A stretch of DNA of 21,243 nt from a virus (Duplodnaviria > Heunggongvirae > Uroviricota > Caudoviricetes). The first letter of the stretch is position 1, and each line of letters opens with the position of its first letter. The stretch is taken from positions 1-21,243 of the IMG/VR virus record IMGVR_UViG_2698536657_000004. One strand, written 5' to 3'. Below are positions 5,647-9,147 of this stretch, piece by piece. The notes below the pieces were generated by a model. That model was not told the origin of the DNA. It ran no database searches and saw only the letters and a program-made list of their open reading frames with translations. The translations under genes were made by a program, and so were the position numbers.

Positions 5647-6351
5647 TTATCCGACCCTGTTATACTGGATTGACTGATGAATGAGAACTTTCCCCATTAT
5701 GAATAGATGTTCTTCAGCTGATTCACTTATAAACCATTCCTTGTAGGCCGGATTGTCTGATATAACAGCAAGTTGCATCCCTTGCATTTGTAGGCGTTTG
5801 ATATGGAAGGTGTGCCCAAAAATAAAAATATAGATACCGTCAGTTTCAAAATTTCTGACGGATACGTCGACAAATACCTGATCTCCTGCACACAGAGTAG
5901 GAGCCATGCTGTCGCCATCAACTGTTATCATCTTTATGATATTTGCTGGCCTGCTACAGAACAGGCGTCTTGCAGCATCATGTGAAAATTCTATGGCATG
6001 GACCGTTTCTGCAAAATCTGACACAAGGAATGTTCCCGGCCCTGCGCTGGCTGCTATATCCAGGACCTCAACACGAAAAACATCCTTATCATTTTCCAGT
6101 GGGGAATATGATACCTGTGGTGTCGGATTGCAGGATGTGCTTTCTTCTGGGGTCATAGGACCAACACCGTACGATAGCCACTCGGGGCGCACGTTCAGGA
6201 TATTGGCTATCTCCACAACTTTCCTGGAGCCTGTGGCACCATTAACCAGTTTATTGACGCTCGATTGAGCCATGCCAACCTCTCTGGCCAGTTTTCCCTG
6301 CGAGTATCCGCGGATAGTCATAGCTAACTGTAGCCTGTCTGAAAAGCTCAT
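5647..6351 (-). CDS. cI: CI-type prophage repressor (N-terminal HTH plus C-terminal LexA-like S24 autopeptidase domain)
   Basis: HTH segment QGKLAREVGMAQSSVNKLVNG; S24 motifs GDSMAPTL and HIKRL; start placed at ATG 6351 with AAGGAGG 4 nt upstream; diverges from cro. Confidence 0.85.
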   Translation of the reverse strand: MSFSDRLQLAMTIRGYSQGKLAREVGMAQSSVNKLVNGATGSRKVVEIANILNVRPEWLSYGVGPMTPEESTSCNPTPQVSYSPLENDKDVFRVEVLDIAASAGPGTFLVSDFAETVHAIEFSHDAARRLFCSRPANIIKMITVDGDSMAPTLCAGDQVFVDVSVRNFETDGIYIFIFGHTFHIKRLQMQGMQLAVISDNPAYKEWFISESAEEHLFIMGKVLIHQSIQYNRVG

Positions 6352-6474: not shown

Positions 6475-6738
6475 ATGAAAAATGAAGGTATAGCCAAGGC
6501 TGTCGATATTGCGGGAAGCCAGATTGCTCTGGCCAGGCGTTGCGGTCGCGCGCAGTCAACAATTTGCGACTGGCTGAATGGGAAGAAAAAAATTTCTCCT
6601 GAATTTGTTCCGTCTCTGGTTAAGGCGGTTGATGGGAAAGTCCAGGCGTATGAATTTCGTCCTGATCTACCGGAGCTTTTCCCACACCCAGGCTTAGCGC
6701 ACACAGAAGATGGAGTGTACGAAGGAGATAAACAGTGA
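6475..6738 (+). CDS. cro: Cro-like repressor of the YdaS HTH family (87 aa)
   Basis: Translation matches the remembered YdaS-type motif pattern; GGAGG 5 nt upstream of ATG 6475; divergent from cI. Confidence 0.8.
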   Translation: MKNEGIAKAVDIAGSQIALARRCGRAQSTICDWLNGKKKISPEFVPSLVKAVDGKVQAYEFRPDLPELFPHPGLAHTEDGVYEGDKQ

Positions 6739-7442
6739 ATACAACAATTTTTACCGACAAAGCATCCATGACCAGCATTGAGATTGCCGAGCTGGTAGGT
6801 AGCCGCCATGACAGTGTGAAGAGAGCAATTGAACGTATTGCTGAACGATGTGTTACCCAACTTCCACCAATGGTGGAAGTTGAGAATAAACAATCACTTA
6901 GTCCTAATAAATATACTAAGGCGTACATCTTCGAAGGCGAACAAGGCAAACGCGACAGCATCATTGTTGTCGCACAGCTTTGCCCTGAATTCACCGCTCG
7001 CCTGGTAGACCGCTGGCGCGAACTGGAAGAACAAATCCGCAGACCAATGAGCCAGATCGAAATGGTTGCTGCAATGGCGCTTGAAGCCGTTCGCCAACAA
7101 AGACGTCTTGAGCAGGTGGAAGAGAAAGTCACCCACGTTACTGAAACCGTCGAGCAAATCAAAAGAGGCACCATACGCGATGGTTATGCAGGCTATCGTC
7201 AGCTGGTGGCGAAAACGGGTATGTCAGATGCGAAATGCCGCAATCTGGTGAACGCATATCAGATCCCTACCGACACCCATGAATTTATGACACCAGATGG
7301 TTTGTTGTCGCGTCGCGCGATTGTTGCAGTAGAACCTTTCATGGCTGCTTTCCGTCACATGATGAGTGAAGCAGAACCACGAGGTACTCGCTGGTATCAC
7401 CCGAAAATGGGACTGTTCCAGGCGCTGGGCTGGCAGGTGTGA
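6735..7442 (+). CDS. Rha-family phage regulatory protein with C-terminal extension (235 aa)
   Basis: N-terminal segment SMTSIEIAELVGSRHDSVKRAIERI typical of Rha domains; GTG start overlapping the cro stop (GTGA), SD aggag 7 nt upstream. Confidence 0.7.
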   Translation: MNTTIFTDKASMTSIEIAELVGSRHDSVKRAIERIAERCVTQLPPMVEVENKQSLSPNKYTKAYIFEGEQGKRDSIIVVAQLCPEFTARLVDRWRELEEQIRRPMSQIEMVAAMALEAVRQQRRLEQVEEKVTHVTETVEQIKRGTIRDGYAGYRQLVAKTGMSDAKCRNLVNAYQIPTDTHEFMTPDGLLSRRAIVAVEPFMAAFRHMMSEAEPRGTRWYHPKMGLFQALGWQV

Positions 7443-7461
7443 TTATGCTCACAGGTAACAC

Positions 7462-7632
7462 ATGCAAGTACTCAATCGCTGGTTCCGTGATGGAAGAGGG
7501 CGTCGCGTCCACGTTATACGCTGGGAGCCTGAAACACAGCGGGTTATTTACCTGCGTGATGGTTATCCGGATGAGTGCTTCAGTCCGTTGTGGCTGTTTC
7601 GTCGTGATTTTGTTGAGTGCGAAGCGCCGTAA
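7462..7632 (+). CDS. Hypothetical small protein (56 aa, MQVLNRWFRDGRGRRVHVIRWEPETQRVIYLRDGYPDECFSPLWLFRRDFVECEAP), below the ORF-track cutoff
   Basis: Hand translation in a different frame from the long track ORF 7439-8287; protein-like composition; ends upstream of a terminator. Confidence 0.4.
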   Translation: MQVLNRWFRDGRGRRVHVIRWEPETQRVIYLRDGYPDECFSPLWLFRRDFVECEAP

Positions 7633-7732
7633 GGCCTGTGCTGTTTACAATATTGATTTCCGGCGGTACACTTTTCTTATAGTGGCAAAATCCACTATCG
7701 GGAGTGAGACCCCGGAATTGATCGAGGCGACA

Positions 7733-7758
7733 AACGACGCGCCAGCGTCTTTTTTGTT
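7733..7758 (+). terminator. Rho-independent terminator (tR1-like) in the rightward early operon
   Basis: Hairpin gacgc-gcca-gcgtc (7736-7749) followed by ttttttg. Confidence 0.6.
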
Positions 7759-7783
7759 GTCAGTGCCTGCGCACACCAGAATT

Positions 7784-7924
7784 ATGGTGGGCTGGGCAGG
7801 GGAACCGAAAGGTTCGCCGGTTTCCTTGATCGCCGGTAGTCTCAACCCTGTCCAGTCCGCCACCAGCGAGATTGAGACCTCCTGTGGTGGATATTGTCAT
7901 TCACCGATCAAGGAGGCTGCCATT
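7784..7924 (+). ncRNA. Candidate structured cis-regulatory 5' leader, copy A, upstream of the second Rha gene
   Basis: 141 nt, aligns without gaps to copy B; nested helices; GAACC-GAAA-GGUUC hairpin at 7802-7815; CCUCC (7878-7882) complementary to the downstream SD GGAGG (7912-7916). Confidence 0.45.
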
Positions 7925-8287
7925 ATGGCTACGATCCCCGCACACCCATACCTCAAAATCGAGGTCGTCAACGGCAGAGCCGTTATATTCTCCCTGTATG
8001 TCGCCTGTCACTTTAAGCGCATGCATAAGAATATCGTCGATCGAATCGAATATCTCAACTGCTCACGCGAATTTCTTACCCGCAACTTTATACCTGGCAC
8101 TTATCGCGCCTATGGCGATTCAGTGCGCGGTTATTACATCACCCGTGATGGTCTGATGATGCTACAGCTAGGGTTAAGTCTGCGCACCATGCGGTACTAC
8201 GAGAGCTGCATTAAAGCACTACATGAGGTTGAAACCTTCCAGGGCCACTCTGCTTTCCGTCGTAATCAACGGGAGGTGCATCAATGA
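7925..8287 (+). CDS. Rha-family phage regulatory protein, divergent paralog (120 aa)
   Basis: Rha-domain start pattern MATIPAHPYLKIEVVNGRAVIFSLYVACHFKRMHKNIVDRI; AAGGAGG 8 nt upstream of ATG 7925; the track ORF extends upstream in frame, alternative start ATG 7784. Confidence 0.55.
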   Translation: MATIPAHPYLKIEVVNGRAVIFSLYVACHFKRMHKNIVDRIEYLNCSREFLTRNFIPGTYRAYGDSVRGYYITRDGLMMLQLGLSLRTMRYYESCIKALHEVETFQGHSAFRRNQREVHQ

Positions 8288-8442
8288 AGCGCCACCAGCA
8301 TATTGATTCTGCAATTCCGGAACGTTACACTGTGAAGGCACCTTATAAAGCGGGTGCCGGGATTGGCGTCCTGAAATTGATTACTGAGCAAAACCGCGCT
8401 CATGCGGTTTTTTCGTACCATGAGCATTGCTACGCCCAAATT

Positions 8443-8583
8443 ATGGTGGGGCGTACAGGGCCGACTTCGGTCGGGCCGGGTTCGGTAGTCTCCGGTAACG
8501 CCAACCCTGTACGTCTCACCACCTCTGTGATTGGCGTCCCATGTGGTGAGTTTTCTAAAAAACTGACTACCGGGGCTGTCACC
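8443..8583 (+). ncRNA. Candidate structured cis-regulatory 5' leader, copy B, upstream of the third Rha gene
   Basis: Same length and conserved blocks as copy A; hairpin here is CCGAC-UUCG-GUCGG (8461-8474); GUCCC (8536-8540) complementary to GGGGC (8572-8576) at the ribosome-binding region. Confidence 0.45.
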
Positions 8584-9147
8584 ATGACTACTCTCCCAAC
8601 CCTCGTTCAACCTGAAATTGCCATTGTTAATGGGCAGGCTGTTACAACTTCATTGGCTGTTGCCGACTTCTTCTCCAAACGTCATGACGATGTTCTGAAA
8701 AAGATCCGTATCTTGGATTGTTCGTCAGAGTTTTGTGCCCGCAATTTTGCGGAGACATCGATTTCGCTAAATCAACCGAATGGTGGTACACGCAAACTTC
8801 CCTGCTACCAAATAACCCGCGACGGTTTTGCGTTTCTTGCTATGGGCTTCACTGGTAAACGTGCAGCCCGGTTTAAAGAGGCATACATCAATGCTTTTAA
8901 CCAGATGGAGAGAAGCTTATCAGGAGCTGGCGCGGCTGACATGTCATCTGTCGCACAAAATGCCAGAGGCGTATACCTGCATTTGCGTGAAATCCATCAA
9001 ATCTGGAAAAGCCAGCTTTATCCCATGCTTAAGGCCGTTGAATCTCCGCTGGCTAGCAAACTGTACGACCGTGTAGGTGATGCTGTTTTTGGGGCCGCAC
9101 TTGTTGATTCCAGACTGAACGGTTCTGACAAGGAGGTGCGCCCATGA
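8584..9147 (+). CDS. Rha-family phage regulatory protein (187 aa)
   Basis: Canonical Rha-domain pattern IAIVNGQAVTTSLAVADFFSKRHDDVLKKIRIL...YQITRDGFAFLAMGFTGKRAARFKEAYINAFNQME; start placed at ATG 8584, alternative in-frame ATG 8443. Confidence 0.65.
   Translation: MTTLPTLVQPEIAIVNGQAVTTSLAVADFFSKRHDDVLKKIRILDCSSEFCARNFAETSISLNQPNGGTRKLPCYQITRDGFAFLAMGFTGKRAARFKEAYINAFNQMERSLSGAGAADMSSVAQNARGVYLHLREIHQIWKSQLYPMLKAVESPLASKLYDRVGDAVFGAALVDSRLNGSDKEVRP

Follow-up and report, generated by a model that had tools for sequence, protein, structure and literature searches.

What are the two similar stretches of 141 nucleotides (nt) that stand directly before the second and third Rha-family genes of a caudoviral genome (IMG/VR record IMGVR_UViG_2698536657_000004), and do they represent a new regulatory RNA? 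In the window, that is, the whole 21,243-nt stretch of DNA analysed here, they occupy positions 7784-7924 and 8443-8583. An earlier account made from the letters alone (hereafter the sequence-only reading) had described them as diverged copies of a structured RNA leader of no known family, in which an upstream segment pairs with the Shine-Dalgarno (SD) region of the downstream gene. Our analysis indicates that each copy is very probably one IsrK-C4 immunity module of a lambdoid prophage. The modules are homologous to a1b1-c4-a2b2 of phages P1 and P7, to seqA-CI-seqC of phage P4 and to IsrK-orf45/STnc1160-anrP of the Salmonella prophage Gifsy-1. The structured leaders are real, yet they belong to a known RNA family with a known mechanism and are not new.

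The repeat itself was borne out. The two stretches align without gaps and are identical at 82 of 141 positions, while about 20,000 pairs of random 141-mers drawn from the window shared 35.4 ± 5.3 positions, with a maximum of 62. The similarity reaches further upstream, giving a module of about 288 nt in each copy. Among the checks suggested with the sequence-only reading, an Rfam scan of the window, folding of both copies and a covariation test among homologs were run. In the Rfam scan, the core of copy A matched C4 antisense RNA (RF01695) with 83.4 bits and the core of copy B with 82.3 bits, against a gathering score of 45, and both matches spanned the full length of the model (positions 1-87 of 87). 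Upstream of each C4 match, stopping 24 nt 5' of it, lies a match to isrK (RF01394; 61.4 bits in A and 59.4 bits in B, gathering score 50). With both copies far above the C4 threshold and an isrK match upstream of each, the view that no known RNA family is involved is refuted. In a permissive scan, c4-a1b1 (RF03163, "a1, b1 targets of C4 antisense RNA"), a family of the same clan (CL00128), also matched the 5' part of both isrK matches with 39.7 bits (A) and 21.3 bits (B), under its gathering score of 46.7; isrK is the better model here. The two C4 genes and their parts are as follows.
7780-7867, plus strand: C4 antisense RNA gene A (RF01695 match, fold and covariation)
7785-7801 with 7846-7862, plus strand: closing stem of C4 A, in the RF01695 register
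7802-7815, plus strand: hairpin 1 of C4 A, with a GAAA loop
7816-7837, plus strand: hairpin 2 of C4 A, with the b' loop UUUCCUUGAUCG at 7821-7832
7838-7845, plus strand: a' single strand of C4 A, AGUCUCAA
7862-7865, plus strand: tRNA-like tail ACCA of C4 A
8439-8526, plus strand: C4 antisense RNA gene B (RF01695 match and fold)
8444-8460 with 8505-8521, plus strand: closing stem of C4 B
8461-8474, plus strand: hairpin 1 of C4 B, with a UUCG loop
8475-8496, plus strand: hairpin 2 of C4 B, with the b' loop GUUCGGUAGUCU at 8480-8491
8497-8504, plus strand: a' of C4 B, AACGCCAA

When folded, both 88-nt cores gave the same three-helix shape, a long closing stem around two hairpins, with energies of -49.4 kcal/mol for A (z = -7.3 against dinucleotide shuffles) and -47.7 kcal/mol for B (z = -6.0). 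Homologs were collected by a DNA-pattern scan of viral contigs, which was anchored only on hairpin 2 and returned 120 matching stretches; for C4, 63 distinct sequences, both window copies included, were aligned without gaps. All 27 base pairs are kept in these 63 sequences (1701 of 1701 pair cells are standard pairs), and the 17-bp closing stem enclosing two hairpins is found throughout. Compensatory changes on both sides occur in 15 of the 27 pairs, a result that none of 500 shuffles equalled, and sliding the partners of the fold lowers pairing to 31-49%. The search pattern itself fixed part of helix 3; members added by hand from a P1-like phage and a Stx phage also compensate in this helix (GCUGG/CCAGU).

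Most of the helices seen by eye survive this comparison. In the Rfam register, CAGGG/CCCUG (7797-7801 with 7846-7850) and its counterpart in copy B lie exactly where the sequence-only reading had placed them, as does CCGG/CCGG (7817-7820 with 7833-7836). Its 5-bp hairpin capped by GAAA in one copy and UUCG in the other was correctly positioned, but the statement that every base differs was too strong: 8 of the 10 stem bases differ, and the loop-closing C-G pair is present in both. The outer helix GGUGG/CCACC was 3 nt off, as GGUGG (7786-7790) pairs with CCGCC (7857-7861) and not with CCACC (7860-7864); in copy B the 3' strand is UCACC (8516-8520). The Rfam register is 100% paired in the 63 homologs, and sliding all 3' partners of the whole fold by +3 reduces the pairing to 49%.

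The main partner of the SD region is the hairpin-2 loop of C4 (b'), aided by the single strand a', which pairs with a2. This interaction, strongly covarying in both of its parts, is missing from the picture of a leader with an anti-SD helix. Its targets are:
7872-7878, plus strand: a2 target A, UUGAGAC, complementary to a' (7 bp, -9.1 kcal/mol)
7905-7918, plus strand: b2 target A, CGAUCAAGGAGGCU, spanning the SD of the second Rha-family gene (start at 7925)
8531-8537, plus strand: a2 target B, UUGGCGU, complementary to a' (-10.5 kcal/mol)
8564-8576, plus strand: b2 target B, UGACUACCGGGGC, spanning the weak SD of the third Rha-family gene (start at 8584)

In copy A, the loop at 7821-7832 pairs with the SD and the bases preceding it, and the single strand GUCUCAA pairs with UUGAGAC. 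In copy B, the partner of the loop is GACUACCGGG (within 8564-8576) and that of ACGCCAA is UUGGCGU. In general, b' is complementary to the SD and to the 7-9 nt before it. The b'-b2 duplex of copy A comprises 13-14 bp with -21.6 kcal/mol, compared with -10.0 kcal/mol for the same loop on the copy B leader; that of copy B is a 10-bp duplex with -18.7 kcal/mol when flanks are included. Duplex prediction between the whole C4 and the whole flank ignores intramolecular structure; its long pairings were discarded as meaningless and it was replaced by loop-only queries. With these, b' of A scored -16.4 kcal/mol on leader A versus -5.2 kcal/mol on leader B, and b' of B scored -15.3 kcal/mol on leader B versus -12.3 kcal/mol on leader A.

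Across 77 homologs, 10 of the 12 b'-b2 pairs are compensatory, with up to five pair types per position and 79% of cells paired, and 5 of the 7 a'-a2 pairs are compensatory with columns 92% paired; both percentages are underestimates, as MAFFT misplaces a2/b2 by a single base for one class of sequences. Over 49 distinct b' loops (43 once spurious pattern matches are removed), b' on its own leader averages -18.6 kcal/mol versus -12.6 kcal/mol on foreign leaders, and the own target outscores 94% of foreign targets. In 73 of 74 loci, the predicted b'-b2 duplex stops 1-7 nt short of the start codon. One homolog (L107, 207-360) carries a one-base change in its b' loop (UUUCCUUGUUCA, where near relatives end in GAUCA), while its b2 and b1 retain the old sequence; this could be a mutation of the immunity-escape type or a sequencing error.

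A scan of the whole window for further targets of a' and b' returned a site for b' of B inside the first Rha gene (6780-6793) and sites for a' and b' of A in the open reading frame (ORF) at 15225-16283 (16221-16227 and 16242-16255). These were judged to be chance matches because they contain several G-U pairs, lie in coding sequence and are far from any ribosome-binding site (RBS). The site at 6780-6793 forms 12 bp with the B loop, three of them G-U. At -18.2 kcal/mol it outscores the cognate b2 in the loop-only comparison; its position, 45 nt inside the gene and away from an RBS, makes a chance match probable.

Both modules also contain a second target pair, a1/b1, upstream of C4 within the isrK-type element. 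The parts of this upstream region are:
7644-7672, plus strand: promoter-like site A, TTTACA-17-TACACT, matching the consensus at 9 of 12 positions
7679-7755, plus strand: isrK/seqA-type element A (RF01394, 61.4 bits)
7679-7698, plus strand: 5' hairpin of isrK A
7704-7711, plus strand: a1 of isrK A, GUGAGACC, in the second hairpin and complementary to a'
7719-7728, plus strand: b1 of isrK A, UGAUCGAGGC, complementary to b'
7736-7749 with U-run 7750-7755, plus strand: intrinsic terminator of isrK A (terminator scan)
8305-8333, plus strand: promoter-like site B, TTGATT-17-TACACT, 8 of 12 positions, read by eye
8338-8414, plus strand: isrK/seqA-type element B (RF01394, 59.4 bits, and fold)
8338-8357, plus strand: 5' hairpin of isrK B
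8362-8370, plus strand: a1 of isrK B, AUUGGCGUC, in a hairpin (-10.5 kcal/mol with a' of copy B)
8378-8390, plus strand: b1 of isrK B (-15.7 kcal/mol with b' of copy B)
about 8390-8411, plus strand: terminator hairpin of isrK B with U-run (model and fold)

The transcription start predicted from promoter-like site A lies near 7679, where the isrK match begins. Site B falls below the threshold of the scan and sits inside the 5' part of a long ORF. The -10 element TACACT is conserved in the flanks of homologs, and both sites are putative promoters, judging from their sequence. In copy B the terminator scan flags 8385-8402, a stem other than the model hairpin. The targets a1 and b1 prefer their own C4 (-15.1 versus -12.7 kcal/mol with own and foreign b', and -11.2 versus -8.4 kcal/mol with own and foreign a'), and their covariation with a'/b' is weaker than that of a2/b2. 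Pairing of a'/b' with a2/b2 and with a1/b1 is also the scheme that underlies the Rfam families C4 and c4-a1b1 and that has been described for P1/P7.

The cis helix described by the sequence-only reading was evaluated separately. Its segments, together with a hairpin that lies between a2 and b2, are:
7878-7882, plus strand: cis anti-SD segment A, CCUCC, pairing with GGAGG at 7912-7916
8536-8540, plus strand: cis anti-SD segment B, GUCCC, pairing with GGGGC at 8572-8576
7884-7904, plus strand: spacer hairpin between a2 and b2 in copy A (leader folds)

This helix is probably real. Both leaders, folded on their own, contain it in their minimum-energy structure (z = -2.5 and -3.6), and in the 77 homologs it is paired in 80% of cells, compared with 72% after shuffling and 37-61% after sliding, with 43 double-change cells versus 13 expected from shuffles. 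These values are confounded: b' pairs with these SD columns too, and a2 includes the first columns of the anti-SD segment. The pairing claim thus stands with moderate covariation, but not the claim of an identical register, since 7878-7882 and 8536-8540 are one base off. The proposed alternative pairing, in which CCACC of the C4 3' strand joins the downstream GUGGUG, has some support: the 3' strand can pair with the 5' GUGGU of the spacer hairpin in 92% of cells, against 91% after shuffling of these highly conserved columns, and one pair covaries (A-U in 70 sequences, G-C in 7). The pair count for the spacer hairpin itself was dropped, as its arms occupy different alignment columns according to sequence class. 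Alternative structures of this kind have been shown experimentally at the Gifsy-1 locus (PMC4825925).

The same order of parts was found in a P1-like Punavirus, directly upstream of icd; in phage P4, where the C4 and isrK covariance models match at CI and seqA; in a Stx2 phage, for which GenBank lists both RNAs, "isrK Hfq binding RNA" and after it "C4 antisense RNA"; and in Escherichia coli prophages. Related DNA matched 1442 of 5426 complete genomes, with at least 80% of the query covered in 87 of the 1442. The name "IsrK-C4 immunity system" has been given to this arrangement in P4, P1, P7, N15 and some lambdoid prophages (PMC3632133).

A close parallel is the immI operon of P1 and P7 (a1 b1 - c4 - a2 b2 - icd - ant). 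Its c4 is described as an antisense RNA that blocks the RBS of the antirepressor (ant) message and sets heteroimmunity (Citron & Schuster 1990, as cited in PMC12197685). It shares with the window the Rfam family and the three-helix fold. In both, b' occupies the loop of hairpin 2 and a' the single strand after it, the a2/b2 targets lie downstream, with b2 at the RBS, and a1/b1 lie upstream. A few a'/b' bases determine specificity in the account of P1/P7 heteroimmunity in PMC12197685, as they would in the window. Unlike in P1 and P7, the gene under direct control in the window would be one of the Rha family, and the icd-ant pair is absent; the module lies in a lambdoid early operon between cro-like and replication genes, and it occurs twice in tandem with different a'/b'. 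The gene of copy A and the P1-like Icd also begin with the same codons (AUG GCU ACN AUC CC, encoding MATIP; 7925-7939 in the window and 2697-2711 in locus L122), and starts of the MATIP type are present in many homologs with unrelated gene bodies. These shared first codons suggest that the mobile cassette includes the gene start.

In Gifsy-1, IsrK activates orf45-anrP (PMC4825925). This locus has an isrK-type RNA with its own promoter and a leaky terminator, to which a promoter-like site and a putative terminator correspond in the window, followed in both by a conserved structured segment that begins with AUG and then by an antirepressor-like gene. The differences are that orf45 ends at a stop codon, whereas the frame in the window runs into Rha without a stop, that the published model does not involve pairing between the C4 loop and the SD, and that a single module is described, against two here. 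In P4, the RNA gene lies, as in the window, inside an annotated ORF (the old "cI protein") matched by the Pfam family Phage_ASH; by published accounts, CI of P4 controls the replication operon at the level of transcription termination, and the controlled genes differ from the Rha genes of the window.

The modules of the window sit in the early operon of a lambdoid-type prophage, in which the relevant genes are:
5647-6351, minus strand: CI-like repressor of the S24-peptidase type
6475-6738: cro/YdaS-like gene
6735-7442: first Rha gene, which has no module
7462-7632: DUF4222 gene (Pfam E = 4.6e-14)
7925-8287, plus strand: second Rha-family gene, 120 aa from an internal AUG (Phage_pRha 29.8 bits, cut-off 29.9)
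8584-9147, plus strand: third Rha-family gene, 187 aa from an internal AUG (Phage_pRha 96.3 bits; TIGR02681 89.8 bits)

The DUF4222 gene is followed by module A with the second Rha gene, module B with the third, genes for small helix-turn-helix proteins and a DnaC/IstB-like loader. Phage_pRha has been placed in the Bro network (PMC10111431). The DUF4222 gene, read in a different frame, lies wholly within the 5' part of the ORF at 7439-8287. Further downstream, the prophage carries a strong STnc100 small RNA match (157 bits) and three tRNA genes (17996-18208 and 16324-16570).

By analogy with P1/P7, P4 and Gifsy-1, C4 would be released from a longer transcript as an RNA of about 77 nt, its 5' end cut by RNase P. 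After the closing stem comes A/G-C-C, both C's of which are invariant in the 63 homologs, and C4 is listed among RNase P substrates in a review (PMC11143913). The processed RNA would then bind a2/b2 and block ribosome entry at the Rha start codon, and the untranslated message would be prone to premature termination. Lack of translation reportedly favours premature termination, a result ascribed to Biere, Citron and Schuster (1992). The isrK-type RNA, with its look-alike a1/b1, would compete for C4 and turn expression on, and the short cis anti-SD helix may additionally close the SD in the free leader. Modules A and B differ in both a' and b'. These differences, together with the preference of each b' for its own leader, suggest that the two modules are probably separate locks on two successive Rha genes.

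Several points weigh against this mechanism. Every functional step is transferred to the prophage of the window by analogy, and the controlled genes are of the Rha family, whose antirepressor role is putative; the second Rha product is also short and borderline at the Pfam cut-off. The b'-b2 duplex of copy B includes two G-U pairs among its 10 bp, and the scans of the window gave chance sites of similar energy, for example at 6780-6793. The free leader sequesters its own SD in cis, so that C4 binding may be neither the only nor the main block. Finally, control in Gifsy-1 was explained by alternative cis structures and an upstream ORF, not by C4 on the RBS (PMC4825925).

The logic of Gifsy-1 and P4 may dominate, although we think it somewhat doubtful that it does. 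The read-through transcript would then be kept silent by cis pairing of isrK a1/b1 with a'/b' and by the anti-SD helix, and Rha would be made only by ribosomes that start upstream, at the C4 AUG or the long-ORF start, and read through. The short IsrK RNA would be the activator, and C4 would mainly promote termination. This account overlaps with the C4 lock and does not exclude it. It draws on the covarying anti-SD helix, on the structures A and B of Gifsy-1, where anrP expression depends on translation of orf45 (PMC4825925), and on the reading frame of the module itself. Among related sequences, which are not independent events, stop codons in the AUG frame occur in C4 in only 1 of 58 distinct sequences, where column shuffles predict 21.7 ± 2.8, and in the leader in 3 of 61, where they predict 21.6 ± 3.2, while stop counts in the other two frames match expectation. 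In the same related set, the stop-to-stop ORF through the module has a median length of 248 codons (66 and 43 for the other two frames). Of 96 such ORFs, 58 open on an AUGA/GUGA/UUGA junction and 64 close on an AUGA/GUGA one. This contrast between frames is hard to explain without selection for an open frame, and such selection fits the requirement for orf45 translation in Gifsy-1.

In the window, the ORFs at 7439-8287 and 8284-9147 tile with their neighbours by overlapping start and stop codons. The second Rha gene shares its frame with both the C4 AUG at 7784 and the longer ORF 7439-8287, and the third is nested in frame inside the ORF 8284-9147, whose AUG overlaps the previous stop (AUGA). 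Long ORFs in the frame of the C4 AUG, with 4-nt AUGA/GUGA overlaps with their neighbours, were also seen in two other loci (L124, 761-2933, and L070, 3596-4889), the latter overlapping a gene of 75 aa in another frame. The depletion of stops in this frame alone extends over about 100 modules. A fused product is, however, not universal: the distance from the C4 AUG to the gene AUG is 138 nt in 49 of 74 loci and 137, 139, 140 or 141 nt in other loci, and in 19 of 74 the downstream AUG is out of frame with the C4 AUG. Inspection by eye revealed no SD-like sequence ahead of the C4 AUG of either copy, and the b'-b2 covariation shows C4 contacting the SD region itself.

A related proposal, which we put forward tentatively, is that these are RNA genes embedded in a translatable frame, in which the peptide varies and stops are excluded, so that translation is a conserved and integral part of the switch. 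Across the family, a single long ORF in the frame of the C4 AUG traverses the promoter, isrK with its terminator, C4 and the leader. During lytic transcription, ribosomes arriving from the upstream gene would unfold C4 as well as the terminator and the anti-SD helix, overriding the lock, and transcripts from the internal isrK promoter would stay locked. The nested eta/kil genes of P4 are a single-case precedent for embedded frames. In part, the idea has already been reported for orf45, of which the nucleotide sequence is conserved, the peptide is not, and the ORF must be translated (PMC4825925).

A novel cis-acting leader of the riboswitch or thermosensor kind, in which two exclusive folds toggle the SD with no trans-acting RNA, is very unlikely. 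The anti-SD helix (in minimum-energy folds, 80% paired, with its excess of double changes) and the helix between the C4 3' strand and GUGGU (92% paired, one covarying pair) would fit such a leader. However, the core belongs to a curated family whose founding members are trans-acting antisense RNAs, as presented in PMC12197685 and PMC3632133, and its loops covary with distant targets on both sides of the RNA, for which a purely cis fold has no need. No conserved unpaired core resembling a ligand pocket was seen in the alignment, in which the unpaired columns are the most variable.

The sequence-only reading had argued for selection on RNA rather than protein, with the caveat that both copies are open in frame with the downstream gene, so that an N-terminal extension might exist. 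RNA-level conservation is supported by the compensated fold, yet the AUG frame is kept open; the caveat was well placed, as the frame is open across the family, but the amino acids are not conserved. A test of the homologs for amino-acid-conserving substitutions found only openness of the frame to be conserved. Entropy by codon position is 0.72/0.71/0.83, a slight excess at the third position only, and the strand swaps of hairpin 1 produce radical changes of peptide (EPKGS, PTSVG, QPSGW and ASKDA). Phage_ASH (PF10554) does match the translated isrK and C4 DNA with 38.1 and 39.3 bits (cut-off 26), at 7784-7950 and 8326-8604, and the annotation pipeline PGAP labels such DNA "ash family protein" or long Rha coding sequences. 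The same profile matches residues 22-85 of the old P4 "cI gene product" ORF (8168-8584, minus strand), the stretch that contains the CI RNA gene (Rfam C4 match at 8420-8507), and the real epsilon (derepression) protein of P4 belongs to another family, PF25738. The Pfam match was for this reason rejected as evidence for a protein; a survey of P4 satellites took PF10554 as the epsilon profile (PMC8628076). It is hardly credible, then, that the conservation reflects an N-terminal "Ash" domain of Rha proteins, despite the profile scores, the annotations and the open frame, as all 27 base pairs are kept, the peptide changes radically exactly at the stem strand swaps, third positions vary little more than the others, and the frame relation to the downstream gene varies.

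Tandem arrays are not confined to the window. Seven were found among 115 locus-strands with at least one module, and b' differs within the array in all seven. A prophage of E. coli O121 (L124; NZ_CP119441.1, 815-2315) has three tandem isrK-C4 modules 656 nt apart, each with its own a'/b' pair and each inside an ORF of 219-286 aa annotated as ash or Rha family. A literature search on tandem or "C4-like" modules returned papers on plant C4 only.

For annotation, these results mean that, where prophage Rha/Bro genes are labelled "ash family protein" or "Ash domain", the label marks an RNA gene, because PF10554 matches over the P4 CI RNA, and that pipelines label the RNA region either as an ash protein or as extra N-terminal sequence of Rha. 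They also illustrate that a reading of sequence alone can recover a real structured RNA, with the right helices and compensatory changes, and that a check against Rfam is needed before a family is called new. Biologically, an RNA-based lock of this kind, for immunity or for an antirepressor, is standard equipment in P1/P4-type prophages and in many lambdoid ones. Where tandem modules differ in a'/b', they resemble natural antisense switches that do not cross-react, and may be of interest to designers of RNA regulators. If translation is indeed part of the switch, the tandem arrays, with two modules here and three in E. coli O121, would represent a chain of separately locked, translationally coupled Rha/Bro genes.

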